Shown: positions 8,838-64,000 of the stretch, piece after piece | Position numbering within the stretch: position 1 is the stretch's first letter | Layout: every line of letters starts with the position of its first letter | Origin: Pachysolen tannophilus NRRL Y-2460 | Lineage: Eukaryota | Reading direction: 5' to 3' | DNA length: 64,000 bases | NCBI GenBank assembly: GCA_001661245.1 | Contig: KV454012.1 | Span: forward strand, 588,147 to 652,146 | Position numbers and translations under genes: made by a program | Notes under the pieces: model-generated | Seen by the model: only the letters and a program-made list of their open reading frames with translations | Told to the model about the DNA's origin: nothing | Database searches by the model: none

Positions 8838-8863
8838 TTTTTAAGTACTTTGTATTTTGAAAA

Positions 8864-11800: not shown

Positions 11801-14800
11801 TATTTTGATCCGATTATTGAACCGGTCATTGAGGATGTGATGGAAGCGCTTTGGAAACATTTGAGACCCTCTCCATATTTTCATCAGCATTCACATACAA
11901 CATTTCGTATTTTGGGTAAATTGGGAGGAAGAAACCGTAGGTTTTTGAAGCCACCTTCCAATTTGAAAACTGAAGCGGCTGTTTACCAGGAAGTCAATGC
12001 CTTATTTGACATACATGGGATTCCAGATAAAGTTCCAGTTTCAATTACTCCGGGGGTAAATTCTGCTTTATCTTTGTTAATTGATTTACGTCCGAAGATT
12101 CACTACAGAGTCAATGCTTTCAAATATTTAAGTTCAATTTTAAAACTTTTTATTGATACTTCTAATATTCCAGAAAACTACTCTGAAAAAGTTGAAGAAT
12201 GCGTGAATTTTTTGATTCTGGAGCCATCGGCTGAGGATAGTAATGTGGCTTTGCAACCAATCAATGTTAAGGATCCAAGTAAGTTAAATAGACAACAAGA
12301 GTTATTGGAAAGGCTAATAGAAGCCATGTTTTATTCTGTCTCTATTGACGAAATAAAAGAAGAAAGTGAAGAGTTAATTGATGGACTTTGTAAACATATG
12401 ACTTTATTAGCTCTTGCAAGAGCAGCTATTGAAAAACGGAAAGCTGAACGTCCTTTTTCTGTTAATCACTATGAAGGAAAAGTTTTTCTTGATGAACGTG
12501 CACTTTTAAATGCTATTTCATACTCTTTGAGCTTCTATATGGAGGATGTAACAAATTCTGGAATAAAGGCGATCAAAATTATATTTGAGACTAGTGTCAC
12601 AATATTTGGATCGGTTGAAAATGCATTGAAGTTTCCTTTTTTGAAACTAATGTTCAGCACATTTCTTCATAACTGCTATGAAGAAGCTTATTTCACAAAA
12701 CTTGGTGGTTGCATTGGGCTTAAAACGATGATAAATGAGTTGGGAATTCCAATATCATGGGTAGCTGGTCGCCAGAGTGAATTTTGCAGTGCCATGTTTT
12801 TCATCTTACGTGATACACCAGCAGATGTGCCCTCTGAAGTTCGTGATATAGCCAAAAAATTGGTTTTAAAGGTATTGACGGATTGTAACAAAGAAGTATC
12901 TCAAAAAGATGTTTTTGAGCGTCCGTTCCAAATTCTAGTTGGCTTATTAGTCACTGATTTAGCCAATCCATCTCAGATTGTTAGAGAAACTGCTCAAGAA
13001 GCTTTGAATACTTTATCGAAGACCACTCAGGTTCCAGTTGCTGTCTTGATGGATAAATGCAAACATGTTTTACTAGCTCCAATTTTTAGCAAACCGTTAC
13101 GAGCATTACCATTTCCAATGCAAATCGGAAACATTGATGCTATTACATTTTGTTTAGGTCTTGAAAATACTTTTTTGACATTCAATGATGAATTGAACAG
13201 ATTGCTTTCGGAGGCCCTTGCTTTGGTGGATGCTGAAGACGAGTCTTTGATTAGTGCACATCGTATTTATGAGCACAGGACATCGGAGCAACTCATCAAG
13301 CTTCGTGTGGTTTGCATTAAATTGCTTTCGTTAGCTTTGACGAAACCTGATTTTGCTGCTGCCCAACAAGGATCAACTAGAATTCGTGTCTTAGCCGTCT
13401 TCTTCAAGACCTTATGTGCCAAATCTTCGGAAATTATTGATGCATCTCATAATGGTCTTGCTGCTGTATTAGCTCAAAATTCGAAATTACCAAAAGAACT
13501 ATTGCAAAATGGATTACGTCCGATGTTGATGAATTTATCAGACCATAAGAAATTAACTGTTAAGGGGCTCGAAGCGCTTTCGCGTTTACTTGAGCTATTG
13601 ATTTCTTACTTCAAAGTTGAAATTGGTCGTAAATTACTTGACCATTTAATGGCCTGGGCTCAACCAGCTACGCTTCATCAAATAGCTAGTCAAGAATTGG
13701 ACAATAACCCCACTGTAAAAATCATTGTTGCCATTTTGAATATCTTTCATCTTCTACCACCTAAGGCTTATACATTTATGGATGAAATCATGAAAACTCT
13801 ACAGTATCTAGAAGATAACTTGCACCGTCGTCAATACTCGCCGTTTCGTGCTCCGATAGCTAAATTTTTGAACAGATTTTCACAGGAGAGTCTTCAATAT
13901 TTTATTGGTAAATTTGCAACTCGTCCAGTTGGAGCACGGTTTGCTTACTTTGTTGGATTAGAAAGCTGCGATTCACTTCGTACTGCAGTTAAAGAAAATA
14001 TTAATGCTTTCTATCAAAATGTTTCGCAAGAAACAAATAATGATATTAAATGTGTCAAATTTTCTAATTTGGTTGATCTTATTTCTGCCATCTCAGCAAA
14101 TGATAGTGACTGGTTCAAGTCACAGAAAAAATTGCTCTTAGATATTTCTTCAGTGGTAGCAGAGGTTTCGAATATTGAGCTTCTGGCGCCCTTGACTTCC
14201 CCCATCCATTTCTTAGTTAATCAAGGTATTGAAAAATTACAAGAAAATTTTGTTAAATTTTTCTATCTTCAATTAGGAGAAACAGAAGAAGTTATTCTGT
14301 TCATTGATCGCTTATGCACACTTAATATTCCAATATCCTGGGCATTAGAAAATTTTATCTTTGAAAAAGTCATCAAATCTGAAGATGCTGATCTCCGCAA
14401 GCAGTATTTAGTAAAGTCAATTGAATTAGTAACTTCTGAAGAAACATCGTTAAAAACAAGAGTCCACATTTTCAAAAGAATCATTAATTCCATTTTCATT
14501 TATGAAGGCCATAAGAATGGTAATTTGGATGCACTTGTTGAAAGATCTGATGGTTCTGTAAATTCCGAATGGTTAGATCTTATTCATAATAAGATATGGC
14601 GTGCGACTAATAATATTGTAACTATTCATACTGCTGGTAGATCTGATGCTTATAGATTTGAATTATTACAAATGACAGCTGTGTTTATAAAATTTGCTTC
14701 CGATCTTGTTGCTGACTTGCGAAGGGATATGATCAAATTTTGCTGGAACTTCATCAAATTAGAAGACGGTATTACCAAACAAACGGCATATGTTGCTACG

Positions 14801-17800
14801 GCCTATTTTATTGCAGCCTATGACACACCAGTGAAAATTGTTACTCAAGTATTTGTTGCGTTATTGCGTACTCATCTAATTGATACCAGATATCTAGTCA
14901 AACAAGCCCTTGACATATTAGCTCCAGTAATGCCAAAGCGCATGGAAAACACTGGATCTCCTATGAGTTGGTTAAAGTGGCCTCGAAGGGTTATCTCTGA
15001 AGACGGTTTCAATGCAACACAGGTATTGAACGTGTATCAGTTTATTGTTCAGCATTCTGATTTATTCTTTGTTGCTCGTGATCATTTCATACCAAACATA
15101 ATTAATTCTATGGGAAAATTAACAATTTTATCCAACCCTGCTTTGGAGAACCAAATTCTTGCGATTGATCTTGCTCAGCTCATTTTAAACTGGGAGAAAA
15201 AGGCGAAGGAACTAAAACCGGAAAATGCTGATGCAGAGAAAGCTGATGGAAATGCTGAAGCTCTGGAGACGTCAACATCACCATCCGACTCTTTAGATAT
15301 CACTACTCCTAGTTCATATGAGATTCCGTTTGCTCAAAGAGAAGCTTGCATTACGTTTTTAATCAGGTACATCTGTATTAGTCCACAACGTGCTTCGGAG
15401 CATGAACTTGGTCAAAAGGCATTACATATTTTACATGAATTGTTGGGTACTGATTTTTGGCCTGAAGTTACTGTTAAGTTGGCCTTTTTTGAACGTTTTT
15501 TGGTTACAACTGATTTAAATACTAGTAGTTTATTAGGTTATTGCCTCAATGCTCTTGAAGTTCTTACTGTTGCTTTAGAATGGAAGTCTCAAGAATGGAT
15601 CATATCGAACCTTTCGTATCTTGAAAAATTACTAGAAAAATGTTTACGTTCAGACAATCAAGACATCCAAGAAGTTTTGCAACGCGTTTTATCGATAATT
15701 CTTAATGCAATCAACTCTCAGAAAGCATCAGAAGATGAAATGCAATCAGAAGAAATCAAGGCTTTTTTGGCATTGATAGTTAACATTATTTCTGAAGATT
15801 TATCTAATACCTCTTCCGTTGCTGCAGGTGTTACATTATGCTGGACATTGGTTCAATACGATCCGTCATCTTTGGATTCGCTATTACCAACGATCATGCG
15901 TACATTTGGTAGGCTCTGCAAAGATCATATTTCTTTAGCGCATCTGGCACAGTCTCATGACGGTGCAAATGCTTCTTCAACAGATTTTGAAGCTAGGACA
16001 ACAACTCGATTATTAGAGAAAATATTGAATTTAGCTTCAATGAGAATCTCGTACCTTGGAGATCAACGTCGTGTTTTCCTATCCTTGTTAGCACAGTTGA
16101 TTGAAAGGTCTCTTGATAAAGAGACACTTCAAAAAATTATCAAAATCGTTCGAGATTGGGTTTTCACTAAAAACAATCTGTATCCAACAATAAAGGAAAA
16201 AGCTGCTATTTTAACAAAAATGATGGTATTTGAAATTAGAGGTGAACCTTCTTTATCCAACGAATTTTATCAAATTATTGTTGATATATTCGAAGATAAA
16301 TCATTGGCCTGCAGTGAGTTGACTGTTCGTATGGAACAACCATTTTTGGTGGGAACTCGTTTATCAGATGTCAAAATTCGGCAAAAATTGGTTTCTTTGT
16401 TAAATGACAGTTTAGAGGAGGATATCAGTAAAAGGCTTTTTTATATTATTCGTGAACAAAATTGGGAATACCTTGGAGACTATCCTTGGTTGAATCAAGC
16501 TTTACAATTACTTTATGGATCATTTGATTTTGATTATGAACTTAAACTTGAAAATTCTGAGTACAAATTTGCTTCATTATCGGACATTGAAGAAGGATTG
16601 ACTATCAATGAAGTCGATAAAAAAGTTAAGGAGACTATCAAATCTGAATCAACAGAAAGTAATGACAAGACGGTGAAGGATCAGGAGGATTTATCCGAGG
16701 ACAAGAAAACGGATGCAGAAAGTTCTGATCTAAAAGAAAAAGTTGAGGATGTCAATCTGGAAGATAAAGACGAAGATGTAAAGGTTACTACTGAAGAGGA
16801 TGTAACAGAAGAGAAAACTTTGAAGACTAGTGTTATTGATGAAAATGCGAAACTGAAACTTCAGGAGTTTCTAAATAATCATCAGAGCTTTATTAAATCA
16901 ACGAGTTTGCTTAAGACTGGAGATCTCATCGTTCCATTTACTGACCTTTTATATCAGAGTGCAGAAACAATACATGCTGCGTGGGTTAATCTTTTTCCTA
17001 TTGCTTGTTCAAAATCTATTCCTCGTCGTGATGAAATGGACTTCACCCGTTATTTAGTCCAGTTGCTATCTAAGGATTATCATGCTCGTCAACAAGATAG
17101 CCGCCCAAATGTTATTATTTCATTATTGGAAGGAATATCTAAGTGTTCTGAGTTTCAACTACCACCTCACCTAGTAAAATATCTTGGTGTAAACTTTGAT
17201 TCGTGGTACCCAGCAATTAAGATTCTTGAAGATATTGATGCGAACCCAATAGTAGAAAATGATAAGATTCGTCAAACTAATCAAGATGCTCTTCTTGAAA
17301 TGTACTCGAGTTTGCAGGAGGATGATATGTTTTACGGTCTATGGAGAAGACGCGCAAAATATTCTGAGACTAATATTGCTCTTTCATATGAGCAAATTGG
17401 ATTATGGGATAAAGCTATTCAACTTTACGAAGCTGCCCAAATTAAAGCTCGTAGCGGAGTTTTACCTTTTAGCGAATCTGAGTATTCTCTTTGGGAAGAT
17501 AATTGGATTTTATGTGCAGAAAAGTTACAGCATTGGGATATTTTAACCGAACTCGCTAAGCATGAAGGTTTCACTGATTTGTTACTTGAATGTGGCTGGA
17601 GAGTTGCTGATTGGACTGCTGATAGGGAACCTCTTGAGCAAGCTGTAAAAACTGTTATGGATGTTCCTACTCCACGTCGTCAAGTTTTTCAAACTTTCTT
17701 ATGTTTACAAGGATTTGCGCAACAGAAGGATACATTGCAGGAAGTATCTCGATACTGCGATGAAGGTATTCAGTTGGCATTGCGTAAATGGCATTCTTTG

Positions 17801-20632
17801 CCTGAACGATTTACAAATGCGCATGTGGCTCTATTACATACCTTTCAACAATATGTTGAGTTTATGGAAGCTAGTCAAGTTTATGGTAGCCTTTCGACTA
17901 CTAGTGCTCAAAATCTAGACGTGAAATCACAGGAGCTCAAGCGTGTATTACAAGCTTGGCGTGAGCGTTTGCCAAACACTTGGGATGACATAAACATCTG
18001 GAATGATCTTGTAACTTGGCGTCAGCATGCATTTGGAGTTATTAATCGTGTTTATATGCCGTTTATTCCAGCATTACAACAGGCAAATGGAAATAACAAT
18101 GCCAATTCATACGCTTATCGTGGATATCACGAAATTGCTTGGGTTATAAATAGATTCGCTCATGTTGCCCGGAAACATGATATGCCAGAAGTCTGTATAA
18201 ATCAATTAACTAAAATTTATACACTTCCAAATATTGAGATTCAAGAAGCTTTTTTGAAGCTTAGGGAACAAGCAAAATGTCATTATCAAAACGAGAACGA
18301 ATTAAATACTGGTCTAGATGTCATTAGTAATACTAATCTTGTTTATTTTGCAACCCAGCAAAAAGCTGAATTTTTCACATTGAAGGGAATGTTTTTAGCT
18401 AAGTTAAATGTTATGGAGGAGGCCAATCAAGCTTTTGCCACAGCGGTTCAAATTGATTTGAATTTGCCAAAAGCATGGGCTGAATGGGGGTTTTTCAACG
18501 ATCGAAGATTCAAAGAAAATCCTAATGAAATATTTTATGCAAACAATGCAATCAGCTGCTACTTACAGGCTGCTGGTCTCTATAAATGTGGTAAGACAAG
18601 AAAATTGCTCAGTAGAATTCTTTGGCTTGTCAGCTTAGATGATGCTACAGGAACCTTAGCTTCTGCTTTTGAAACTTACCGCGGAGAAGTTCCAGTTTGG
18701 TATTGGATTACATTTATCCCACAATTGTTGACATCATTGTCGCATAAAGAAGCTAGATTGGTACGTCAAGTTTTGATCAATATTGCGAGAACATATCCCC
18801 AAGCTTTACATTTTCAACTTAGGACCACTAAGGAGGATTTTGCTGTTATCAAAAGAGACGTCACAGCCCGTCAAACACCAACTAACCCTACCGATGGTGA
18901 TGGTAATGCTGGTCAATCACAAACAGGAACACCACAACTTGGGCAGGCTACTCCTCATGCTGCTTCTATTGGGTTTAGTCCAATTGGTTCTCGTCAACCA
19001 TGGGAACATGTTGAAGAAATTATGGGTATTTTGAAAACGGCTTATCCTCTACTTGCTCTTTCTTTAGAGTCATTAGTGGATCAAATTACGCAAAGATTCA
19101 AATGCAGTAGTGATGAAGATGTTTACAGACTTGTTGTTGCATTGTATAATGATGGTGTTTCATACCTCAACCGTTTAGGAAATCCAACTCAAGATGCTAA
19201 ATTACCTCCTTCTACTGAAGTTAATATTAGTAAATTTGCTGACACTGTTCTACCAAGAAATATCAGAGCAGAATTTGAACAAGATGTTATAACAAGTAAA
19301 CCAAATTTGGAAACTTATATATCGAAATTGAGGAGATGGCGTGATCGTATGGAATTGAAGTTGGATAGAAGATTTAACAAGATTAACTTAGAAATTTTAT
19401 GTCCACATCTTAGCGAATTCCATCACAAGAAATTTGAGTATATCGAAATTCCTGGACAATATTTATTAAATAAAGACAACAATAGCCATTTTATAAAAAT
19501 TGAACGGTTCTTCCCTGTGGTCGATTTAGTTCGTGGTCCGGCTTCGTGTTACAAACGGTTGACAATTCGTGGTCATGACGGTAGTTTACATCCATTCGCT
19601 GTACAATTCCCGGCTGCACGCCATTGTCGTCGTGAAGAACGTATTTTCCAGCTCTTCCGCATATTTAACGAAGCTTTGTCGAGTAAAGTTCAGACTCGTC
19701 GTCGTAATATTCAATTTACTTTACCAACTGCTGTTCCATTATCTCCTCATATCCGTATTATGACAGATGATAAGAGATATGTTAATATGTTATCGATTTA
19801 TGAAGAGTACTGTCGTCAAAATAATCAAAGCCGTGATGAACCACTTGCTTATACTATTCAAAAATTACGTGCTGCTTTTGACCCACGTTTACCAAAACCT
19901 GATTTAATCAGTATAAGGACAGAAATTTTAGCTGCTATCCAATCATTATTGGTTCCAGGTACAGTTCTAAAAGATTATTTCACAAAATTGTATCCAAAAT
20001 TTGAGGATTTCTGGTTATTTCGGAAACAGTTTACTTCGCAATATGCAACATTCATCTTCACTACTTATATGATGTCCATAAATAGTCGTCAACCTCAAAA
20101 AATCCATATAAACCATGGATCTGGTAATATTTGGACTTCTGAAATGCTTCCATGTAAGATTGCTTGTGGAAGGACTACCAGTACAGCTTTCAAAGATAGT
20201 ACTTTGGATATCTCGAATCAACGTGCTGCTCCTTTATTACATAACGCAGAACCTATTCCGTTCCGTTTAACACCTAATATTCAGAAACTTATTGGTGAAG
20301 CTGGATTAGAGGGTATATTATCTGTCAATGTTTTAACCATTGCCAACAGTCTTTCAGATCCAGATTTTGATATGGAACAATATCTTAGTTTGTTTGTGCG
20401 TGACGAAATTATTTCTTGGTTTACTCAACAACATCGTCCAAGTGCTCAAGATCCGCAATTACGTGAAATTGTTAGAGTTAATGTAGAGCTACTTGTCAAG
20501 CGTGTTCTGCAACTTGGAAGTCAAGGTACAAAACCTGGAGTTGCTTCGCAATTTGTTTTAGATTTGATTGCCCAGGCAGTCAATCCTCGTAATCTTGCCG
20601 CAATTGATACTTTATGGATGTCATATCTTTAG
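8864..20632 (+). CDS. TRA1: Tra1/TRRAP pseudo-PIKK subunit of SAGA and NuA4
   Basis: 3922-aa HEAT-FAT-PI3K-like-FATC protein; RPLAYSTVADFIH, QFPAARHCRREER, PFRLTPNIQ, C-terminal PRNLAAIDTLWMSYL. Confidence 0.98.
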   Translation: MSYTVHLDGFASKLSDQSTDFKTKTSLLSELCDMIETFNGTQEYEYFLKTLVPIFLNNLESVPITFMSSTHEHKLRNLILKIIHRSAMNDIFKPYANDILESLMKLLKTENEENGVLCMKIITSLHKSYKQDLGEKVGPFVDIIVEIYTNMPQVVEETFNNPNLQSQSQSQSQSQAQSQSPNINNSASSPLANQSPRPLSPSLSPNDESQTKILAKSMHSFKTLAECPITMVSLYSSYRNLIQTSMPTFLPHVIDILSLQAKPQQDARLLAEQKNERLISLTPAIKNRAAFCDFILGQVKAASFVAYIFIRGYALNIMTNFTDIIPDLIIRLLQDCPSELSAARKELLHATRHILSTSFRTMFIPKIDLLFDDRVLIGDGLTSYETLRPLAYSTVADFIHNVRAELTPEQIWKTVRIYCKNLQDSSLALTVQIMSAKLLLNLVERVMKLPSKLESRQLFMLIIDAYAKRFASLNRQHDYIMHQHDLYTKKKQEKEKLQENLLVKRNSLELLKNNQQQKTLKTEENGTKQHDKLNIEDVEMKHADDELKEEENNHNQEEENEQQQKNSDEKMQIDEDGDQNDEKMNDAEESTESRKVKSEENEEPKQVKKIQEKLEKPDSEADQKEELCIFNIDQVSATVIAPKSTTDPLKDSRYLFRTLMSFLKSVIFGLKNCNPSPPSNDYNSQTWNSSARIFTNEELNILRNLYKEGISGLRFFRSFKPTLPPQLAKHSFDITGPNLPITSSKDEKDLMEIFATMFIHIDPATFNEIVQSEMPFLYVSVLENAALLHIPQFFLASEITTSNFSGILISFLKTKLPELGEVDIIKSSILMRLFKLCFMSVNLFPSANESVIVPHLNELILDSLKLTTTAKEPLDYFYLIRTLFRSIAGGRFENLYKEIMPLLQVFLESLSRMIETARRPHERDIYVELCLTVPVRLCVLVPHLSYLMRPLVYALNGSQELVSQGLRTLELCVDNFTAEYFDPIIEPVIEDVMEALWKHLRPSPYFHQHSHTTFRILGKLGGRNRRFLKPPSNLKTEAAVYQEVNALFDIHGIPDKVPVSITPGVNSALSLLIDLRPKIHYRVNAFKYLSSILKLFIDTSNIPENYSEKVEECVNFLILEPSAEDSNVALQPINVKDPSKLNRQQELLERLIEAMFYSVSIDEIKEESEELIDGLCKHMTLLALARAAIEKRKAERPFSVNHYEGKVFLDERALLNAISYSLSFYMEDVTNSGIKAIKIIFETSVTIFGSVENALKFPFLKLMFSTFLHNCYEEAYFTKLGGCIGLKTMINELGIPISWVAGRQSEFCSAMFFILRDTPADVPSEVRDIAKKLVLKVLTDCNKEVSQKDVFERPFQILVGLLVTDLANPSQIVRETAQEALNTLSKTTQVPVAVLMDKCKHVLLAPIFSKPLRALPFPMQIGNIDAITFCLGLENTFLTFNDELNRLLSEALALVDAEDESLISAHRIYEHRTSEQLIKLRVVCIKLLSLALTKPDFAAAQQGSTRIRVLAVFFKTLCAKSSEIIDASHNGLAAVLAQNSKLPKELLQNGLRPMLMNLSDHKKLTVKGLEALSRLLELLISYFKVEIGRKLLDHLMAWAQPATLHQIASQELDNNPTVKIIVAILNIFHLLPPKAYTFMDEIMKTLQYLEDNLHRRQYSPFRAPIAKFLNRFSQESLQYFIGKFATRPVGARFAYFVGLESCDSLRTAVKENINAFYQNVSQETNNDIKCVKFSNLVDLISAISANDSDWFKSQKKLLLDISSVVAEVSNIELLAPLTSPIHFLVNQGIEKLQENFVKFFYLQLGETEEVILFIDRLCTLNIPISWALENFIFEKVIKSEDADLRKQYLVKSIELVTSEETSLKTRVHIFKRIINSIFIYEGHKNGNLDALVERSDGSVNSEWLDLIHNKIWRATNNIVTIHTAGRSDAYRFELLQMTAVFIKFASDLVADLRRDMIKFCWNFIKLEDGITKQTAYVATAYFIAAYDTPVKIVTQVFVALLRTHLIDTRYLVKQALDILAPVMPKRMENTGSPMSWLKWPRRVISEDGFNATQVLNVYQFIVQHSDLFFVARDHFIPNIINSMGKLTILSNPALENQILAIDLAQLILNWEKKAKELKPENADAEKADGNAEALETSTSPSDSLDITTPSSYEIPFAQREACITFLIRYICISPQRASEHELGQKALHILHELLGTDFWPEVTVKLAFFERFLVTTDLNTSSLLGYCLNALEVLTVALEWKSQEWIISNLSYLEKLLEKCLRSDNQDIQEVLQRVLSIILNAINSQKASEDEMQSEEIKAFLALIVNIISEDLSNTSSVAAGVTLCWTLVQYDPSSLDSLLPTIMRTFGRLCKDHISLAHLAQSHDGANASSTDFEARTTTRLLEKILNLASMRISYLGDQRRVFLSLLAQLIERSLDKETLQKIIKIVRDWVFTKNNLYPTIKEKAAILTKMMVFEIRGEPSLSNEFYQIIVDIFEDKSLACSELTVRMEQPFLVGTRLSDVKIRQKLVSLLNDSLEEDISKRLFYIIREQNWEYLGDYPWLNQALQLLYGSFDFDYELKLENSEYKFASLSDIEEGLTINEVDKKVKETIKSESTESNDKTVKDQEDLSEDKKTDAESSDLKEKVEDVNLEDKDEDVKVTTEEDVTEEKTLKTSVIDENAKLKLQEFLNNHQSFIKSTSLLKTGDLIVPFTDLLYQSAETIHAAWVNLFPIACSKSIPRRDEMDFTRYLVQLLSKDYHARQQDSRPNVIISLLEGISKCSEFQLPPHLVKYLGVNFDSWYPAIKILEDIDANPIVENDKIRQTNQDALLEMYSSLQEDDMFYGLWRRRAKYSETNIALSYEQIGLWDKAIQLYEAAQIKARSGVLPFSESEYSLWEDNWILCAEKLQHWDILTELAKHEGFTDLLLECGWRVADWTADREPLEQAVKTVMDVPTPRRQVFQTFLCLQGFAQQKDTLQEVSRYCDEGIQLALRKWHSLPERFTNAHVALLHTFQQYVEFMEASQVYGSLSTTSAQNLDVKSQELKRVLQAWRERLPNTWDDINIWNDLVTWRQHAFGVINRVYMPFIPALQQANGNNNANSYAYRGYHEIAWVINRFAHVARKHDMPEVCINQLTKIYTLPNIEIQEAFLKLREQAKCHYQNENELNTGLDVISNTNLVYFATQQKAEFFTLKGMFLAKLNVMEEANQAFATAVQIDLNLPKAWAEWGFFNDRRFKENPNEIFYANNAISCYLQAAGLYKCGKTRKLLSRILWLVSLDDATGTLASAFETYRGEVPVWYWITFIPQLLTSLSHKEARLVRQVLINIARTYPQALHFQLRTTKEDFAVIKRDVTARQTPTNPTDGDGNAGQSQTGTPQLGQATPHAASIGFSPIGSRQPWEHVEEIMGILKTAYPLLALSLESLVDQITQRFKCSSDEDVYRLVVALYNDGVSYLNRLGNPTQDAKLPPSTEVNISKFADTVLPRNIRAEFEQDVITSKPNLETYISKLRRWRDRMELKLDRRFNKINLEILCPHLSEFHHKKFEYIEIPGQYLLNKDNNSHFIKIERFFPVVDLVRGPASCYKRLTIRGHDGSLHPFAVQFPAARHCRREERIFQLFRIFNEALSSKVQTRRRNIQFTLPTAVPLSPHIRIMTDDKRYVNMLSIYEEYCRQNNQSRDEPLAYTIQKLRAAFDPRLPKPDLISIRTEILAAIQSLLVPGTVLKDYFTKLYPKFEDFWLFRKQFTSQYATFIFTTYMMSINSRQPQKIHINHGSGNIWTSEMLPCKIACGRTTSTAFKDSTLDISNQRAAPLLHNAEPIPFRLTPNIQKLIGEAGLEGILSVNVLTIANSLSDPDFDMEQYLSLFVRDEIISWFTQQHRPSAQDPQLREIVRVNVELLVKRVLQLGSQGTKPGVASQFVLDLIAQAVNPRNLAAIDTLWMSYL

Positions 20633-25553: not shown

Positions 25554-26653
25554 TCACCGTAGAGGTAATATATTTTGCGTAAATACTGCTTGCCGACACA
25601 ACGGGCATTCAGGTCTTTCGCTACACCAATTAGTAATACAAGTCCAGCAAAAACAGTGTCCACATGGAGCAGCTGACGGGTTCACCATATATGATAAACA
25701 AAGTATACATTTCCTTGACAGCTCCGGAATATAAGGTAGATGTTCTGCATTGGATAGATCAATAACATTATTCTTTGATGTCTGCGCTTTTTCTTCTTCT
25801 TCTTCTTCGGATGGAATACCTTGTAAAATATCTGAAACAGATTTGCGTTTATCGTCTGATTCCAATTGAGATTCTTCCTTTGAAGTGATATTATTTTTAT
25901 TGATAACTTCTGATATTTTGTTTGAAATCTTAAAGAAAAACTGTAACAAAATCAATGCACCCAAGAATTCATAACTTCCAGTATTATGATTCTTTTCGTC
26001 GACTCTATGTCCAAAAGCATATCTTAATCCAAATAATCTTTTTGACAAATTATAGTATTTACCGTTCAAATAGAATAAAGCAATATGGATATTCATTATT
26101 GTGTCCATTAAACTCTTGTAATGAATTGAAGATAAAAATTTCTTAATTTTTACCAAAAATGAATTATCCTTCTTCTCTTCATCTGCTTCAGAATCAATTG
26201 ACCTCAATTTTTTTGTTAGCAAAACAAATATATACGGTAATAATGAATAAGATAACACAAATCCCAATCTTTTCAGTAATGCTGGTAACTTCTTGCCATC
26301 TTTTGAAACATAAATCAAATCGGTATATTCTTCACCCAAGGTTTTAGAACCTAACAAAGTAGTAAGACTCAAATATACAAATTTTGATAAAATCGTTAAC
26401 TCCTCTGGGTGAGTATGAACAAATCTTTGTCCCTTAAATATCTGAAGGACATTTTGTAAATTGGATCGAAGCACTGCTTGAAAATATGAATCTTTTTGAT
26501 GACTACGAACTATGAAAAATGTTAGTTAATTTCATTAATAATAATGAATATTCATGCTTATTAGGATAATAACTTACCAATTGCAGGTGCATCTGAAAAT
26601 TGCAAGTATGGCTTCCTGCCCTTTATCTTGTTGCTTTCATCTACCAAATTCAT
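25554..26653 (-). CDS. PEX10: Peroxisomal RING E3 Pex10, intron at 26510-26577
   Basis: Spliced N-terminus FSDAPAI|VRSHQKD, TLGEEY motif, C-terminal C3HC4 RING. Confidence 0.95.
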
Positions 26654-26827
26654 ATTCCTGTCATACTATTAATGTATTAGCAACAACTTATTTCAATTGA
26701 TAGTATTATTAAAATATTATAAAAAAAGAGGTTTTGCACCATAAACGCGATACACTAGTAATTTGAAGCTTTTACATACTTACATACTATTAATACTATT
26801 AATACTATTAATACTATTAACATTTAT

Positions 26828-35089: not shown

Positions 35090-35334
35090 NNNNNNNNNNN
35101 NNNNNNNNNNNNNNNNNNNNNNNNNNNNNNNNNNNNNNNNNNNNNNNNNNNNNNNNNNNNNNNNNNNNNNNNNNNNNNNNNNNNNNNNNNNNNNNNNNNN
35201 NNNNNNNNNNNNNNNNNNNNNNNNNNNNNNNNNNNNNNNNNNNNNNNNNNNNNNNNNNNNNNNNNNNNNNNNNNNNNNNNNNNNNNNNNNNNNNNNNNNN
35301 NNNNNNNNNNNNNNNNNNNNNNNNNNNNNNNNNN
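35090..35334. other. Assembly gap
   Basis: N-run between poly-A tracts. Confidence 0.99.
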
Positions 35335-38878: not shown

Positions 38879-39287
38879 NNNNNNNNNNNNNNNNNNNNNN
38901 NNNNNNNNNNNNNNNNNNNNNNNNNNNNNNNNNNNNNNNNNNNNNNNNNNNNNNNNNNNNNNNNNNNNNNNNNNNNNNNNNNNNNNNNNNNNNNNNNNNN
39001 NNNNNNNNNNNNNNNNNNNNNNNNNNNNNNNNNNNNNNNNNNNNNNNNNNNNNNNNNNNNNNNNNNNNNNNNNNNNNNNNNNNNNNNNNNNNNNNNNNNN
39101 NNNNNNNNNNNNNNNNNNNNNNNNNNNNNNNNNNNNNNNNNNNNNNNNNNNNNNNNNNNNNNNNNNNNNNNNNNNNNNNNNNNNNNNNNNNNNNNNNNNN
39201 NNNNNNNNNNNNNNNNNNNNNNNNNNNNNNNNNNNNNNNNNNNNNNNNNNNNNNNNNNNNNNNNNNNNNNNNNNNNNNNNNNNNNNN
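38879..39287. other. Assembly gap whose flanks overlap
   Basis: N-run with AAAAAGAAAGAATTT..TAAATTTC on both sides. Confidence 0.97.
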
Positions 39288-54153: not shown

Positions 54154-56052
54154 TCAGCTACAATTTTTAGCCAAGGTAAAAACTGCTTTGAACCTTTCCC
54201 ATAAGCTGTTATCGTAACCTGACTTATTTAACGATTTAACGAAAAGCCATGCTTTTTTTTCATCTTTTATTGGGTAATCCACAGGTGGTGGGATTGTTGT
54301 ATGGATGAATGGGTATTTGTCGTAACAAACAGATTTAGCATTGCACAAACCACGTAATCCTTCTTCGCCGCCAAATTTACCATATCCTGATTTTTTAACA
54401 CCACCAAAGGGTAATTGACAGAGGTAAAATGTAGCAAAGTCATTAATAGAGACATTACCTGTAACCAAATTATTTGCTATGTAGTTACCCAATTTGAAAT
54501 CATTTGAGAAAACAGAAGCACCAAGTCCATATTCTGTTGAGTTAGTAATTGAGATTGCTTCTTCAACGTCATTAGCTTTAATCATTGTTAATACTGGGCC
54601 AAAAATTTCATTTTGTGCAATATCCATTGATGCGTCTACATCTACCAATAAAGTTGGTTGAAAATAATGACCTTGAGGATAGTTTGGATGATGGAATTTT
54701 TTACCTCCTGCAAGAAGTTTTGCTCCTTGATCAACAGCATTAGAAATAATTTTTTCAAGAGTATCAAATCTTGCATCTGTAATAATTGCACCCATGTCTA
54801 TATCTTCCAATTGATCGATATCAGAACCTAATCTCAATTCTTTTATTCTCTTGGACAAGATCTTTACTAATTGATCATAAACACGTGGTAATGCAATGAC
54901 TCTTTCAATACCAATACAATTTTGTCCTGAACTTTGGAAAGTACCTCTTAATATAATTGAAGCAACTGATTCTATATCTTTAACATCATCACAAACAATT
55001 ATTGAATCTTTCCCACCAAGTTCCAAGACTACTGGGGTTAAAGATTTTCCAGCTGCATTTATAACTTTATGAGCAACAGGTTTTGAACCAATAAATGTTA
55101 TATGGGATAATCCTGGATGTGATGTGAAATAATCTGCTTCTTCTGGCCAACAACATACTAATTGAACAATATTTGGATCATGTCCACATTTTTGTAATGC
55201 AGCTTGAACTATTGAAATAAAATAAGTTGAACTCCAAAAAACTTGTTCAGAACATTTAATGATACAACCATTACCTGTGAATATACTTGCAACAATTGGT
55301 CCCATTAAATTATGGAAAGGATAATTCCAGCTAATTAAAGCAGCTACAACACCCAATGGTTCATATCTAACTTCAGCTTCTTTATATTTCATGAATAAAT
55401 TAGAAGGTCCTGGTCTTGAAGAAATAGATAAACTTTTTTCACCATTTTGTAAGATCCAATTAATTTTTTCTAAAGTTACTAATATTTCACCCATTGAAGC
55501 ATCAACCATTGTTTTACCTGAATCTCTACAAGCAACTCTAACAATTTCACTTTGATGATCACAAATAAATTGATTTAAAGTTCTCAAAACTTTACGACGT
55601 TGTTGAAAACTTGTTTTTAACCATTTTAATTGTGCATTTTGACAATTATTAATTGATTTATCAATATCTTCTTTTGAAAAAGATTTATATTTCCCCAAGA
55701 ATTGACCTGTTGCAGGACAATAACATTGTATATAATTTGGATCATCTTGATTTCTTATAGAAACTGGAAATAATCTTTTACCTTTCCAATGCGGTTTAGC
55801 AGCTTCCGGAGTATTTAATTCAATCTTAACAGGTCTTTCTAATCTATAATTTGAATTTAATTTATAATAAAAAGCAAATGAAATAGGTAATACAACTGTA
55901 ACCAAAAATGAAATCGATATTTCCACAGGTAAATTTTGTGAATTTAAAACATGATTCCAAATCGAATCTAATAAACTTAAATTCGAAATAAAAAAATTGC
56001 TTGGATTAATCTGTGATAGCACCATTGATAATTCAGTAAAACTCGATTTCAT
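54154..56052 (-). CDS. MSC7: Msc7-type aldehyde dehydrogenase-like ER protein
   Basis: N-terminal TM, IQCYCPATGQ, ISWNYPFHN, LELGGKD, SGQNCIGIER, QLPFGG. Confidence 0.92.
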   Translation of the reverse strand: MKSSFTELSMVLSQINPSNFFISNLSLLDSIWNHVLNSQNLPVEISISFLVTVVLPISFAFYYKLNSNYRLERPVKIELNTPEAAKPHWKGKRLFPVSIRNQDDPNYIQCYCPATGQFLGKYKSFSKEDIDKSINNCQNAQLKWLKTSFQQRRKVLRTLNQFICDHQSEIVRVACRDSGKTMVDASMGEILVTLEKINWILQNGEKSLSISSRPGPSNLFMKYKEAEVRYEPLGVVAALISWNYPFHNLMGPIVASIFTGNGCIIKCSEQVFWSSTYFISIVQAALQKCGHDPNIVQLVCCWPEEADYFTSHPGLSHITFIGSKPVAHKVINAAGKSLTPVVLELGGKDSIIVCDDVKDIESVASIILRGTFQSSGQNCIGIERVIALPRVYDQLVKILSKRIKELRLGSDIDQLEDIDMGAIITDARFDTLEKIISNAVDQGAKLLAGGKKFHHPNYPQGHYFQPTLLVDVDASMDIAQNEIFGPVLTMIKANDVEEAISITNSTEYGLGASVFSNDFKLGNYIANNLVTGNVSINDFATFYLCQLPFGGVKKSGYGKFGGEEGLRGLCNAKSVCYDKYPFIHTTIPPPVDYPIKDEKKAWLFVKSLNKSGYDNSLWERFKAVFTLAKNCS

Positions 56053-56880
56053 CAATAATTATTAAATTATCTTTTAAAATTAGAATTAGAATTAGAATTA
56101 GAAAATTAAAATGAAAATAATTTCTTTAAAAACCAATAATCAAAAAATATAACAACTCTTTTTCAATCTCTATTAATTTATCATAATCATTAAATCAACT
56201 CATCTCTCGTAAAATAACTAGTCTTATTTCTTCGTACAATAAAACTCGTCAACTAAACAACCTGAAGTGTCAATCAGCCCGTCAATCAGGCCGTCCGTCT
56301 GCCAGCTCTGCCAGCCAGCCCGCGAGTTAGCCTGCGAGAGTCTATCTGCCCGCTGAAGCAAAGAAGGCCCGGCTGAAGCACCAGCAAGGCCAATCCGCCA
56401 ATCCGCCAATCCGCCAGCTAGTTAGGCGGCCAGGCTGCAAGGCGGGCCTTCGTGCCACAATTAAAGAAAAAAAAACACTTTCTTGATTCCCGCGCGCACG
56501 ACCCTCCCTAAACATCCCCTTTTCCCGCTTAAAAATCCAATTCAAACAGTTTTACTAATTCAATCAGTTAGCTTTTGCAATAAAAGAAAAAAACAAATTG
56601 GTGTAAACTGATATAAAGTATAATATCTCTCATATAGAACAGCAAAGCATATAACTTTTATAGAAGGGAAAATTGGTTCTAGTTTTAAAATCTCTGTTAC
56701 CAAAATATATTTTTTTTTTTTGTCTTTTTTTTTGGGGGGGAAAGAGAGTTCTTTGAATCACGTGCAAAGTTGACTGGTATAAAGAAAAAATTTTTCAAAT
56801 GCATATGAAGAGAAGAGAAGAGATAAAGATATAGATAGGTTTATAAAGAGATATTGATAAAGGTAATAATTTTGGGAAAG

Positions 56881-57066
56881 ATGGGATCTAAGAGGAAGAA
56901 GTCGGAGAAGCAGAAGGATTTTAAGAAGGCCAAGTTGAAAGTTGGGAAGACGAAGCTGAAGGCTTTGAATCATACTGATACTTCGTTTGTTGCCAAGACG
57001 ATTTCGTTACCTTCACAGTCTATAGCTAATAAGAAATCATCGTTGACATCTAATAAGATTATCTAA
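56881..57066 (+). CDS. IPI1: Ipi1 (Rix1 complex), N-terminal 61 codons only
   Basis: MGSKRKKSEKQKDFKKAKLKVGK..NHTDTSFVAKTISLPSQ is the Ipi1/TEX10 N-terminal signature; ends at TAA 57064-57066. Confidence 0.88.
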   Translation: MGSKRKKSEKQKDFKKAKLKVGKTKLKALNHTDTSFVAKTISLPSQSIANKKSSLTSNKII

Positions 57067-57277
57067 CCTATTACTCTCTTAAAAACAACAATTTAAAAAA
57101 TGAATTAAATATTACAAACTCTTAAAAAGAACTTTTCACCTTTTATTTAAAAAAAAAAAAATACAACATAATAATAAACTGTGGTCGTGTTTTCAACCTG
57201 ATGAGCTTTTAGTTATTTAATATTTTGACTATATAATATATAGATAGATATATATCGAATTATTCTATATGAATGTG

Positions 57278-58249
57278 CTATTGTCTACTGTTAAACTCTT
57301 GTTCGTCCTTCTCTGCTTGGTCTAAGATACTCAATACGTTTTTAGCTGCTTTAGTAAAGTCTCCAGCTTCATTTAGCAACTCTGTTAAACCTCTTTTCAT
57401 TGGTTTTTCAAAAAAATCAATCAAGATTTTTCTTCTAGTTTCTATATCTTCACAACTTGTATTATTCAAATCGATAAAAGAGCTATTATTTGGATTGGTA
57501 TTTGAAGGTAATTCTTTAATGAAAAGTTTTAAATGAGTATAAGGTTCGGGCACTGTAGGTAATAAATACAAATTTGTTAATGCATGAATTGAATAAATTT
57601 TTAAATCATTATTTGAAATATCATCTAAGTTTTTTTCAATTTCAAATTTAAATAATCCCTTATTTAAAAAATTTGACAAGATTTCTAAATGATATAACCT
57701 TGATTGTGAATTAGATTTGCTTGAAATTGATTTTGTAGATATTGATAAACTTAAAGATTTTTTACTATCCACATTTAATTGCCAATTCAACAATTGACAA
57801 AAACATTTTAAAGTTTTAATCCATGAACTCTTTATTAATGAATTTGGTCCATAATCAACCAATATTTTTAAAAATTTTGTAGAATCATTTCTAATATCAG
57901 GTTGAATATGGGTCATTGCAGAATGAATAAATAAAACTATTGATCTTGCATGTAATTCCATTATTCCTTCTTGCTTCTTTGATATCGAAATCAAAAGTGA
58001 AACCAAAGATTGCCTTACAAGCGAATTTTGATCCATTATTAATGGTACTATAGAATTTAATAAATTCTTATATGAAGATGGATTTGAAGGTAAATGCAGC
58101 TCAATATAATTTAAAACTTCTTTCCTAGTTGTAGCAGAATGATGCTTCGTTAAAGACAAATGCCGTGTTAAATCCACATCCTCAACAACAGCTAAACCTT
58201 GTGAAATAACCTTTGACCCAGTAGATTTATTACCAGATATATTTTGAAG
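57278..58249 (-). CDS. IPI1: Ipi1 remainder on the opposite strand, with no ATG at its 5' end
   Basis: DLTRHLSLTKHH..RKE, SAMTHIQPDIRNDSTKFL, PEPYTHLKLF; open frame runs from 58249 to the stop at 57278. Confidence 0.9.
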   Translation of the reverse strand, partial: LQNISGNKSTGSKVISQGLAVVEDVDLTRHLSLTKHHSATTRKEVLNYIELHLPSNPSSYKNLLNSIVPLIMDQNSLVRQSLVSLLISISKKQEGIMELHARSIVLFIHSAMTHIQPDIRNDSTKFLKILVDYGPNSLIKSSWIKTLKCFCQLLNWQLNVDSKKSLSLSISTKSISSKSNSQSRLYHLEILSNFLNKGLFKFEIEKNLDDISNNDLKIYSIHALTNLYLLPTVPEPYTHLKLFIKELPSNTNPNNSSFIDLNNTSCEDIETRRKILIDFFEKPMKRGLTELLNEAGDFTKAAKNVLSILDQAEKDEQEFNSRQ

Positions 58250-58251
58250 TT

Positions 58252-60459
58252 ATGAGTTCAAGAGGGTTAAGGAAGTTGGAAAGACAAAACTTGGAAGAAG
58301 AATTAGCCAAGTATTCGAAAAACAGCGAGTTACCAGTGGATCTGGAGGCGGAATCAAGTGAAGAAGAACAAAAAGATTTATCCAACAAGAGCAAAATCAA
58401 TGCTTTTGATTTGCTAGGAGCGGAAGAAGAAGAGGAAGAAGAGGAAGAAGAGGAAGAAAAGGAGATTAAAGATGAACAGTTGAAAGATTCAAACAAGGTA
58501 GAGGTACTCCCGAAACCTATTAATTCTAATAAAAAAAAGAAAAATAAAAAAAGTAAAAAGAGTAAAAGTAAGAAAACAGAGAAAAACAACTCTGGAGAAA
58601 GTGATCAAGAAGATATTGATCAAATCTTGAAAGAATTGGAAATCAAGGATAAAAAAGGACGTTTTGCTAATGCTTTGGTAAATACAGTTGGTAGTGATGA
58701 TGATGATGATGATGATGATGAAAATGAAGAAAGTGAATTAAACAGAACAAATTATGTTGAAGGAAATTTTGTACTGAATCATAAATATTTCACTTTATTC
58801 AAGTTGAAAAAATGTTTAAATCTTTTAAAAATTAATCCAAAAGATTTAGATCCAGATAGAGAATTTAGGAATTTATTTGGTACTGAATTGTCGGATTCAG
58901 CCATTGAGGATGCTGATTCAACTTCTTCTTCTTTTGTAACTCCTGAAATTTTGCGTCAAATTAAAAAATTATCCAAGATGGTTAGAGGTTGGGGAGGTAA
59001 GGATAGAAGATCTTTCCCAGGATCTTCAAGGAAATTGGTTTTCACTAAAATTAGAGATGATTGGATACCAACACAGATTAAAAATATATCTATGAAAGAA
59101 TGTGAGGATGAAGAAATATTAAATTTGAAAACAATTAATATTACAGATATAAATGAAATTTCTAAAATAAAGGAAACTTTACGAAAAGAAAAAAAATTTA
59201 ATATAAGATATTTCAAATTTACTGAAAATACAGATATGAAATTAGATAATTCCCAATTTTTCATATCAATTGTTATAAGACCTGATCATGAGTCATTGAT
59301 AAATTTATTACAGAAAAGTCCATATCATGTAGAAACTCTTGTACAAGTTTCTACTATTCTTTTCAGACAGGGTGACAAGTCCAATTCCAATGGTTTGATT
59401 GAAAGAGCATTATTTGTATTTGATAGAGCATTGAGACAAAATTTTGATATTGGAAATGGTTTAGTGAGATTACCTTTCAAGTATTTTCTCAATAGACAAT
59501 TTTATTTAACTTTATTTCGGTATATTCAGATATTAACACAGAAATCTACATTTTACACTGCGTTACAATATTGTATATTCATGTTATCGTTAAATCCTAC
59601 AGAAGATCCATATGGTGTTAGATATTTTATTGATTATTATTGCATTATGTCAGGAGAGTACAAGTATTTGATTGAGTTTGTTGATTCATACCTTTGTATT
59701 ACTTATAATTCTTGGTTAACTCCCAGTTTATGTTATTCTAAAGTATTGGCTTATTTACTTGATGATTATGAAAAGAATTTTGATAAGGCTGTGGAATCTT
59801 TAATTTTTGCATTTGAAAGATATCCATATACTGGTTATAAATTATTGGAAACAATAGGTCTTGGAAATGCACCACCATTATTGGATGACAATTTTTTCAA
59901 AAAAGTAACAACTACAGATGAAATTGCAACGGAAGCATACTTGATAAGAGTTAAATTGATGTGGAATAATTCTAAAGTCAAGGATTTTTTGCATGATGAA
60001 TTAATGAAATTATTTACGACTAAAAAAGAAATATTAGAAACAGAAAACACTGGTAACAATGGTGGAGTAACTTCATTTTTTTCATCTTTTTTCAAAAGAA
60101 GCGGATATACAGAGGATAAACAAAAAGAAGAAGAAGAAGAAGAAGAAGCAAAAGCAAAAGAAGAAGAAATGAAAAAAATGATTCCACTGAATTTATTAAG
60201 ACATGCAATTTTAATAGACGAACCTAGTGTTATGGCAAAGATTCCTGAAAATGTATGGGAGGGGAACGAAATTTATGATTTTGATGCGTTCCCACCAAAA
60301 GGATTAGCTGGAGAATCTATTGAAAATTTTATTGATCATGATATGATTGCAGGTGCACTAACACAACACAATGAAAACGATGCGATAATGGACGCTATAA
60401 GGGCAAGTCTTTTAGATATCGAAAATGAAAACCAAGTAATGGATGACGCTGAACCCTGA
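58252..60459 (+). CDS. RQC1: Rqc1/TCF25 ribosome quality control subunit
   Basis: MSSRGLRKL N-terminus, PYHVETLVQ, IERALFVFD, NRQFYL, EDPYGVRYFID. Confidence 0.9.
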   Translation: MSSRGLRKLERQNLEEELAKYSKNSELPVDLEAESSEEEQKDLSNKSKINAFDLLGAEEEEEEEEEEEEKEIKDEQLKDSNKVEVLPKPINSNKKKKNKKSKKSKSKKTEKNNSGESDQEDIDQILKELEIKDKKGRFANALVNTVGSDDDDDDDDENEESELNRTNYVEGNFVLNHKYFTLFKLKKCLNLLKINPKDLDPDREFRNLFGTELSDSAIEDADSTSSSFVTPEILRQIKKLSKMVRGWGGKDRRSFPGSSRKLVFTKIRDDWIPTQIKNISMKECEDEEILNLKTINITDINEISKIKETLRKEKKFNIRYFKFTENTDMKLDNSQFFISIVIRPDHESLINLLQKSPYHVETLVQVSTILFRQGDKSNSNGLIERALFVFDRALRQNFDIGNGLVRLPFKYFLNRQFYLTLFRYIQILTQKSTFYTALQYCIFMLSLNPTEDPYGVRYFIDYYCIMSGEYKYLIEFVDSYLCITYNSWLTPSLCYSKVLAYLLDDYEKNFDKAVESLIFAFERYPYTGYKLLETIGLGNAPPLLDDNFFKKVTTTDEIATEAYLIRVKLMWNNSKVKDFLHDELMKLFTTKKEILETENTGNNGGVTSFFSSFFKRSGYTEDKQKEEEEEEEAKAKEEEMKKMIPLNLLRHAILIDEPSVMAKIPENVWEGNEIYDFDAFPPKGLAGESIENFIDHDMIAGALTQHNENDAIMDAIRASLLDIENENQVMDDAEP

Positions 60460-62613: not shown

Positions 62614-64000
62614 ATGGCGTCATCGCAATTTGGTGATTCCAATAATTTAGATGAAAGTCTTTTAATTTCGTCACTTTCATTAGGTGAATCTGTTTCAAAT
62701 TCAGATTTGATGCAGTTAGAAACACCTTTCAAACAAGGTGATAGCGATGATAGTAATAATAATAACAACAATAATAATAATAATATGAAACACTCGTTGA
62801 ATGTTTCTTCGTTGAGAAGGCTGTATGACATTGATGGGGATGTGATAATGACAGACTCGCCATTACCCAAGAGGTATTATAATTATTTTGATACAATTAA
62901 AAAAGTTCAAGATATAAGGACAAGTAATAATACTACTGGGACTATGGATATGAATGGTTATGGTTATAATTATGGGACTGTAATTGGTGATGCTAATGCT
63001 CATAAAGATGGAAATAACAATGATAGAAATAAGAATATGAGCTTGGATTTGTTAAATTTGCAAAATAAGTTACAAGTGATTGATAGTGATATTGAAATTT
63101 TAAATCATAGAGAAGAAGATATTTTAACAAATTATGATACTGAGAATGTAGATATAAATACCAATTACAATGAAGAAAAGGAAGATTTACAAACTCCACA
63201 AGTTGTAACTTATAAAAAAAATGGTGGTGATAGTTTGATAAAGACAATACTTTCACCAACTTTATTGGGAGCAAAGACAGCTTATAAAATTTCTCCTCAT
63301 AGTAATCCAAAGAAGCTATTATTAGAAATGCCTCAACAGGAACTGGAATTTCAAGAAAAGTGCAAATGGGGAACAGATCATGGAAATCAAGAAGAAGAAG
63401 AAGAAGAAATTTTAGAGTATGATACTGCAAAGAATCTGGTGGCTGTGTCCAATTACAACTATATGGGAAGTATTAATCGGGACAGTAGTTCATCAAACGT
63501 TACTATCCAGGAGCCAGATGATAATTTTGGAAATCAGGTACGACAATTATGGAATAGAAATGAGAATGACCCAGCTCTTCCGATCCAGTTTCAACTCCAT
63601 CAGCATCAGCATCAGCATCATCATCATTACTACAACAATAATAACAACAATAACAACAACAACAGTCAATTGCAAAAAAATAATAGCGCAGGCGCAAATG
63701 GTAATTCTTTAACAAAGGTATCACCAACAACCTCAGGACCTTCAGTACCTTCATCACAAAGGTTTCAAAGCTTAGCACAAAATCAACAGCAACATAGGTT
63801 AGATTTAGAACCTTATTACTTACCTTCTCCTTGGATGGTAAAAATTTCCAAATTTCCATATGTGATATCATCTTATTTGCAAATCTTTTTCAACATTTTA
63901 ATCCTGGGATATTTCCTGGTTGTTGTTTTCAAAATGACCAAGACTATAAATTTCGATATCAATTTAAAAATTAAAGAAAATTTAAACAATATTCATAGCG
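62614..64000 (+). CDS. Brl1/Brr6-family nuclear envelope protein, 3'-partial
   Basis: Open frame running off the window end (absent from the ORF track); long N/Q/H low-complexity region, then PYVISSYLQIFFN-TM-..DINLKI, the start of the Brr6-like domain. Confidence 0.75.
   Translation, partial: MASSQFGDSNNLDESLLISSLSLGESVSNSDLMQLETPFKQGDSDDSNNNNNNNNNNMKHSLNVSSLRRLYDIDGDVIMTDSPLPKRYYNYFDTIKKVQDIRTSNNTTGTMDMNGYGYNYGTVIGDANAHKDGNNNDRNKNMSLDLLNLQNKLQVIDSDIEILNHREEDILTNYDTENVDINTNYNEEKEDLQTPQVVTYKKNGGDSLIKTILSPTLLGAKTAYKISPHSNPKKLLLEMPQQELEFQEKCKWGTDHGNQEEEEEEILEYDTAKNLVAVSNYNYMGSINRDSSSSNVTIQEPDDNFGNQVRQLWNRNENDPALPIQFQLHQHQHQHHHHYYNNNNNNNNNNSQLQKNNSAGANGNSLTKVSPTTSGPSVPSSQRFQSLAQNQQQHRLDLEPYYLPSPWMVKISKFPYVISSYLQIFFNILILGYFLVVVFKMTKTINFDINLKIKENLNNIHS

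Follow-up and report, generated by a model that had tools for sequence, protein, structure and literature searches.

Is IPI1 of Pachysolen tannophilus truly broken across two DNA strands beside RQC1, or does the break belong only to the public record of this genome? The question arises from one locus of the window, that is, the whole stretch of 64,000 nucleotides that was analyzed. In the ORF listing and the sequence, codons 1 to 61 of IPI1 lie on the plus strand at 56881 to 57063 and run directly into a TAA at 57064 to 57066, and the rest of the gene is found on the minus strand as an ORF of 323 codons, extending from 58249 to 57278. No ATG occurs in this minus-strand ORF before codon 72, and strongly conserved Ipi1 residues lie upstream of that codon. 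Its outer end is separated by 2 nt from the ATG of RQC1/TCF25 at 58252. The initial annotation had described IPI1 as split over two strands next to RQC1, and the ORFs, Pfam matches, and sequence agree with that description of the window.

The identity of the two genes is well supported by domain matches. The minus-strand ORF matches Ipi1_N (PF12333) with an E value of 1.6e-31 and 109 bits against a cut-off of 24, with residues 97 to 195 of the ORF covering positions 3 to 100 of the 100-position profile. The RQC1 ORF matches Tcf25, residues 321 to 682 spanning the entire profile (positions 1–337 of 337). For the short plus-strand piece, 34 to 44 of the 51 to 55 aligned positions are identical to those of eight full-length homologues, and by this alignment the 61 N-terminal residues are genuine Ipi1. 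The public protein is a 281-residue "partial" model (P0001) that agrees with the minus-strand ORF at 276 of 277 residues, implying that the deposit itself carries the break and that a start codon could not be located. In the protein collection searched, this partial model was the only Ipi1 of P. tannophilus, and no full-length form of about 379 residues was present.

The orientation of the locus was checked by comparing window positions 56000 to 59500 with Logan contigs of four public runs (X1, X3, X4, and X5; three samples, two studies). In every run, a single contig of 6071 to 7077 bases aligned on the plus strand over 56000 to 57062, on the minus strand over 57063 to 58235, and again on the plus strand from 58236, and both joints scored as "opposite strands". 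No contig of the four runs had the window's orientation across either breakpoint in this interval. The contigs showed no base substitutions relative to the window in any run; the only differences were one-base homopolymer lengths at 56466, 57148, and 59189. The window's shorter poly-A lengths at two of these sites are common only to run X3, in which the order is still collinear. Pieces of one record lying on opposite strands of independent sequence from the same genome, the defining mark of an inversion misjoin, were thus found in all four runs and both studies without a single substitution. The contigs pass both joints unbroken and unbranched, and their depth is flat over the right joint; the higher depth in the left bin is due to 31-letter pieces that fall on the poly-A tract (57145–57178). 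The share of window words recovered was 0.95 in all five matching runs, none of them from RNA, close to the value of about 0.946 predicted from the loss of 31-mers spanning the junctions and homopolymers, which is a loose consistency and not evidence, as 236 words were sampled and X3 lacks two of the homopolymer differences.

The contigs also fix the breakpoints at 57062|57063 and 58235|58236, enclosing a segment of 1173 bp; they are unique, and neither has room to shift. Re-inverting exactly 57063 to 58235 yields one IPI1 ORF of 379 codons from the ATG at 56881, with the joint reading ..SNKII|GNKST.. and falling within codon 61. The basic N-terminal region (MGSKRKK..DTSF..ISLP), which is separate from the rest of the protein in the window, is contiguous with it in the contigs of all four runs. 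The re-inverted ORF is collinear with the eight full-length homologues at 47 to 52% identity overall. The linker between the basic N terminus and the conserved "DLT..L.L.KHH" block is some 15 to 27 residues longer than in these homologues; this is a species-specific low-complexity insertion, unrelated to the breakpoint.

These coordinates modify the earlier picture. The inversion proposed in the initial annotation stands, and we reproduced its open frame of 384 codons upon reversal of 57064 to 58249, as well as the in-frame TAA left by an exchange at the TAAC/GTTA letters (57067–58249). The exact ends do not stand: the right end lies 14 bp inside the one proposed, and the joined protein is 379 residues long rather than 384 residues with the joint ..SNKII|LQNIS... 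The first five residues of the minus-strand ORF, LQNIS, are the antisense of the RQC1 leader and not Ipi1. For this reason, the weak similarity previously noted between the junction peptides QSIANKKS and QNISGNKS compares coding with noncoding sequence, and we rejected its reading as a homologous overlap left by an old real event, the contig joint being 14 bp further in. The 4-bp TAAC/GTTA microhomology is not located at the contig-defined breakpoints; moreover, the two strands of the window together contain 562 copies of TAAC, about one per 114 bp, which places such a match at chance level.

Table 1. Features of the IPI1–RQC1 locus in the window
Feature	Position	Strand	Evidence
IPI1 5' part in native orientation: codons 1–60 and first two bases of codon 61	56881..57062	+	ORF listing, homologue alignment, contigs of four runs
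Back-to-front segment, 1173 bp: remainder of IPI1 and most of the IPI1–RQC1 spacer	57063..58235	-	Contigs, four of four runs
IPI1 3' part: third base of codon 61 to codon 379, and stop at 57280–57278; contains Ipi1_N	57278..58235	-	Pfam PF12333, partial model, in-frame join
IPI1 3' region and RQC1 upstream region (terminator/promoter spacer), 215 nt; misplaced directly 3' of IPI1 codon 61	57063..57277	-	Re-inversion
RQC1 leader, last 16 nt, in native orientation; its antisense gives the spurious LQNIS	58236..58251	+	Contigs and sequence
RQC1/TCF25-family ORF, 735 codons and stop	58252..60459	+	ORF listing, Pfam Tcf25 PF04910 (E 1.9e-93)

Taken together, we consider it very probable that the record contains an inversion misjoin, with 57063 to 58235 wrongly oriented, and that the locus is neither a switch nor a split gene. 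The 1173-bp stretch would have been set in the wrong orientation within a draft scaffolded assembly, whereas the organism's DNA, as independently assembled from the public runs, has an uninterrupted IPI1 of 379 codons on the plus strand, followed by RQC1 on the same strand. After re-inversion, a spacer of 231 nt separates the IPI1 stop from the RQC1 ATG. By our inference, assembly or finishing of the record introduced the fault, rather than an event in the cells. The initial annotation had taken misassembly as its default and had named an exclusively collinear IPI1–RQC1 order in the reads as the sign of an artifact; this order is the one that the contigs of all four runs display. The window contains two runs of N, at 35090 to 35334 and 38879 to 39287, from which it follows that the record is a scaffolded draft.

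The ends of the segment do not resemble those of a typical scaffolding error. Where a scaffold piece is placed in the wrong orientation, gaps or ragged ends are the usual result. However, the inversion here is base-exact, with no base lost or gained at the joints, and the two N runs of the window are its only ones, so that none lies within 17 kb of the segment. Of the 147 inverted pairs in 56500 to 58800, none of the 25 longest has arms at 57063 and 58235, no letters at the joints fit both sides, and the end bases of the segment are not complementary. The statement of the initial annotation that neither an N gap nor a long inverted repeat marks the ends was confirmed on the N-run listing and these 25 pairs. 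Inspection of N runs, inverted pairs, and contig depth revealed nothing at the joints, whether a gap, a repeat, or a drop in coverage, that would explain the error. Base-exact, gap-free, and repeat-free ends argue against a misjoin. A literature search that included the available text of PMC4937558 found no description of the record's assembly method; that text cites a further assembly of this strain (Liu et al. 2012, CAHV01). The record could also describe a different clone from those behind the four runs.

The cleanness of the ends speaks for a real event, a two-break or template-switch inversion private to the clone or subpopulation sequenced, which would disrupt IPI1 and uncouple RQC1 from its promoter. 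A clean biological two-break event can give repeat-free ends at which nothing is lost or gained, the annotation of the deposit itself has the broken gene, and rare variants are lost from assembled contigs, which makes a small share of cells in the window's orientation compatible with our evidence. Such an inversion would be tolerated if it were subclonal or heterozygous, or if the two Ipi1 pieces still worked. Nevertheless, we regard it as unlikely. The collinear form is the only one in all four runs and both studies, in contigs that do not branch at either joint, and an assembler would not normally pick a minority orientation. In addition, the minus-strand piece would have to start at or beyond codon 72, downstream of strongly conserved residues. 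IPI1 is essential in Saccharomyces cerevisiae, so one would not expect a break in it to become fixed in a haploid genome. In its narrower form, a base-exact, repeat-independent inversion of 1173 bp in the DNA preparation of the record, subclonal or recently arisen, the proposal appears quite improbable. If it were true, a single event would truncate a 60S-maturation gene and detach RQC1 from its promoter, and cells would either tolerate Ipi1 without its basic N terminus or carry the variant in a mixed population.

Far less probable still is a reversible DNA switch, in which flipping of the segment would toggle expression of IPI1 and RQC1. The idea gains some appeal from the inducible MAT inversion of this very species, in which an 8-kb region is flanked by 2-kb inverted repeats and for which nitrogen-depleted medium is the reported inducing condition (available text of PMC6692504), and from the position of the segment's ends, which coincide exactly with functional boundaries: one lies within the IPI1 linker, the other 16 nt 5' of the RQC1 ATG. 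However, an invertible switch would be recognized by repeats or recombination sites at its ends and by both orientations in the DNA; the ends lack inverted repeats within the pairs inspected, and the contigs of the four runs contain one orientation only, with the reservation that contigs drop rare variants. There is no evident benefit in silencing an essential gene of ribosome biogenesis. No recombinase was found among the neighboring ORFs scanned, which encode a Pex2/Pex12 RING protein, a sugar transporter, an SNF2 helicase, an aldehyde dehydrogenase, and BCD1. A true split gene, with Ipi1 made as two polypeptides or joined by RNA-level trans-splicing from opposite strands, has the lowest probability of all, barely above nil in our estimate. 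Although each of the two Ipi1 pieces has an open, conserved reading frame in the window, the 3' piece has no ATG upstream of its conserved region and starts without an AG acceptor, and neither GTAAGT nor GTATGT occurs close to where the 5' piece ends. The true joint lies inside a codon, and the DNA is collinear in all runs examined. An ordinary intron with an upstream exon for the minus-strand piece was also rejected, given the missing acceptor and the occupation of the upstream DNA by the RQC1 ORF. The invertible switch and split gene raised in the initial annotation are therefore unsupported, there being no flanking inverted repeats and no contig in the window's orientation.

We also looked for similar breaks elsewhere in the window. 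Among the window's 28 stop-to-stop ORFs with 150 codons or more, a late or absent ATG was seen in 5. The Pex2/Pex12-like ORF at 25557 to 26525 (minus strand) was dismissed as a break and has an ordinary 5' intron instead. Open codons precede the first methionine in the sugar-transporter ORF (44 codons) and in the SNF2 ORF (66 codons), and the domain matches of both start far downstream; nothing indicates a break in either. The ORF at 62996 to 63472 (minus strand) is antisense within a longer ORF.

An inversion misjoin has consequences for how this locus is read. Such an error in the record accounts both for the promoter that RQC1 seems to have lost and for the "partial" state of the public gene model. 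The motifs GATGAG, at 57200 on the plus strand, and TGAAAAGTT, at 57130 on the minus strand, are present as earlier described, and both lie in the misplaced spacer piece; single hexamer or nonamer matches of this kind (PAC, RRPE) are too weak to claim regulation. In biological terms, IPI1 and RQC1 would form an ordinary tandem pair of intact genes, with nothing split or switched. As for curation, the IPI1 model is broken and RQC1 lacks its upstream region in the public record and its annotation; left uncorrected, these faults could mislead orthology tables, essential-gene surveys, and promoter analyses that use this genome, a reference for the CUG-Ala genetic code. More generally, draft assemblies can hide a base-exact inversion without a flagging gap or repeat, and signals of a "split essential gene" need a read check first.

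Comparing the locus with known systems, the MAT flip/flop (FF1 type) of P. tannophilus shares with it the species, by best protein hit, and a DNA segment found in opposite orientation. However, the MAT region needs its 2-kb flanking inverted repeats and occurs in both orientations in cultures, according to the available text of PMC6692504, whereas the IPI1 segment has no inverted repeat at its ends, contains no MAT genes, and occurs in one orientation in the four runs. Both proteins are typical of their families by domain match, Rqc1 of the TCF25 family and Ipi1 of the Rix1-complex subunits; after re-inversion, Ipi1 is so by full-length collinearity as well and differs from the eight homologues in its longer linker. 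Inversion misjoins are a defined and counted class of assembly error in evaluations of the GAGE-B type (available text of PMC3702249). The present case differs from that class in its base-exact flip and in joints devoid of gap, repeat, or ragged end. It resembles the class in that independent sequence of the same organism matches pieces of the window on opposite strands, in that N runs elsewhere mark the record as a scaffolded draft, and in that correcting the orientation restores two ordinary genes.

As written in the record, IPI1 is divided between two ORFs on opposite strands upstream of RQC1, and this layout, described in the initial annotation, was confirmed by the sequence together with an ORF listing. 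In Pfam, the minus-strand ORF matches Ipi1_N (PF12333; E 1.6e-31), and the 735-codon ORF matches Tcf25 (PF04910; E 1.9e-93). No Pfam match was obtained with the 61-residue plus-strand piece alone; it aligns to the N termini of eight full-length Ipi1 homologues, with 34–44 identical residues over 51–55 aligned positions. Among the 25 longest inverted-repeat pairs in 56500–58800, none had arms at the ends of the reversed segment. Just two N runs occur in the window (35090–35334, 245 bases, and 38879–39287, 409 bases), which marks the record as a scaffolded draft with unclosed gaps.

Coordinates of the IPI1 and RQC1 reading frames as they stand in the record
Feature	Position in window	Strand	Basis
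IPI1 5' ORF	ATG 56881, 61 codons, TAA 57064–57066	+	ORF reading
IPI1 3' ORF, stop-to-stop	58249 down to 57278, 323 codons; first Met at codon 72	-	ORF reading
RQC1 ORF	ATG 58252, 735 codons	+	ORF reading

Five public sequencing runs from two studies contained 56500–58800, and four of them (X1, X3, X4, and X5, which represent three samples and both studies) were compared with the window over 56000–59500, all as Logan contigs and with 58415–58573 left out as a repeat. In each of the four, a single contig of 6,071–7,077 bases spans the whole locus through both joints, running on the plus strand over 56000–57062, on the minus strand over exactly 57063–58235, and on the plus strand again from 58236. 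The contigs carry no substitutions relative to the window and differ from it by one-base homopolymer lengths alone: at 56466 and again at 57148, X1, X4, and X5 are longer by one A, and X3 has one base fewer at 59189, these sites being runs of 9, 13, and 8 A, respectively. The lengths in the window are those of X3 at 56466 and 57148 and those of X1, X4, and X5 at 59189, and the differences are probably miscalls in one data type. Despite sharing the lengths of the record at two long poly-A tracts, X3 also shows the collinear order. Both joints were called as lying on opposite strands, with no letters fitting both sides. Contig depth stays level through the right joint, whereas the excess depth by the left joint arises because 31-letter pieces sit on the poly-A tract at 57145–57178. 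Among the pieces listed for the four runs, none crosses either joint in the orientation of the window. The collinear order alone, the outcome that the initial annotation had taken as the sign of an artefact, was therefore found in the contigs of all four runs; as contigs and not raw reads were compared, a rare subpopulation in the orientation of the window could escape.

When 57063–58235 was reverse-complemented by script and translated with table 26, the ATG at 56881 opened one IPI1 ORF of 379 codons, with a 231-nt spacer separating its stop from the RQC1 ATG. Codon 61 is split by the joint after its second base, and the protein sequence across the joint is ..SNKII|GNKST... This ORF is collinear with the eight full-length homologues at 47–52% identity overall, and its low-complexity linker is some 15–27 residues longer than theirs. 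With the orientation corrected, IPI1 and RQC1 are ordinary, intact, conserved tandem genes. The earlier proposal to reverse 57064–58249 does yield an open frame, of 384 codons, but its ends are contradicted by the run contigs: the residues LQNIS, assigned to Ipi1 after the joint, are the antisense of the final bases of the RQC1 leader, and the TAAC/GTTA letters pointed out in the initial annotation lie outside the true breakpoints, TAAC occurring 562 times in the window. Because the end bases are not complementary, the breakpoints are unique, and the range can neither shrink nor grow.

An exact TGAAAAATTT, which we take to be an RRPE-like motif, is located at 56788 on the minus strand, about 90 nt 5' of the IPI1 ATG, and is one of five occurrences in the 64-kb window. 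Its position would fit a ribosome-biogenesis gene, a single motif match being weak evidence.

Searching protein sequences with the minus-strand ORF as the query returned 74 relatives, the top match among them being 'hypothetical protein PACTADRAFT_48611, partial [Pachysolen tannophilus NRRL Y-2460]' (281 aa). This partial model corresponds to residues 14–290 of the ORF and is identical at 276 of 277 positions (table 26, CTG = Ala), implying that the public deposit for the strain has the same broken gene, for which the annotators found no start. No full-length Ipi1 of P. tannophilus (about 379 aa, a length inside the range searched) was present in the protein search. The second-best relative, the protein P0002 (57% identity, 314 aa), begins at a Met within the conserved LP(N/H)QS motif, without the 42-residue basic N terminus of all other full-length homologues. 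Its gene call may be truncated, or an intron or a contig break may account for the shorter protein; its start point differs from the IPI1 breakpoint in the window. CTG codon 26 of IPI1 (56956–56958) falls in a column occupied by Ala in all eight full-length homologues (K-T-x-A-K), an alignment that fits the Pachysolen CUG = Ala code (table 26). At a second CTG, residue 51 of the minus-strand ORF, the homologues mostly have Gln, and the position is uninformative on the code.

The window holds 28 stop-to-stop ORFs of 150 codons or more, and in five of these, the IPI1 piece included, the ATG is late or missing. In the main ORF of a Pex2/Pex12-RING peroxin (25557–26525, minus strand), the first Met comes only after 139 codons; an ordinary 5' intron explains this, the gene (25557–26660, minus strand) having a short exon 1 with an ATG near 26653, GTAAGT, an AACTAAC branch site, and a TAG acceptor. 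Nothing abnormal was found in the sugar-transporter and SNF2-helicase ORFs with late ATGs, and the remaining one is antisense inside a longer ORF. Judged from the starts of ORFs of this size, no second anomaly of the IPI1 kind came to light in the window sequence. A very long ORF of 3,923 codons occupies 8861–20629 on the plus strand.

Since the record conflicts with every independent reconstruction that we reached, and its correction restores two intact genes, the reversed segment is very probably an error of the record and not a biological feature. Among assembly errors, inversion misjoins form a class of their own that is well recognised (PMC3702249). The main point against this reading is that the flip is base-exact and that neither a gap nor a repeat marks its ends, an unusual pattern for a scaffolding error. 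Such clean breakpoints would fit a genuine inversion, private or subclonal, but this is unlikely given that all four runs show the collinear order, that the conserved 3' piece of IPI1 lacks a start codon, and that IPI1 is essential in S. cerevisiae. The misassembly that the initial annotation held as its default is supported by 4/4 runs, and the switch and split-gene readings it raised find no support. A split or trans-spliced gene is scarcely credible, as the ends of the IPI1 pieces carry no splice signals and the joint falls within a codon.

With the segment read as an error of the record, the practical result is that the reference annotation needs correction. A reversible DNA switch has a precedent in the inducible flip/flop inversion at MAT of P. 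tannophilus itself, yet it is highly improbable here, where the run contigs show one orientation alone. Whereas the IPI1 segment has no inverted repeats at its ends, the MAT flip/flop (PMC6692504) involves an 8-kb region lying between 2-kb inverted repeats.
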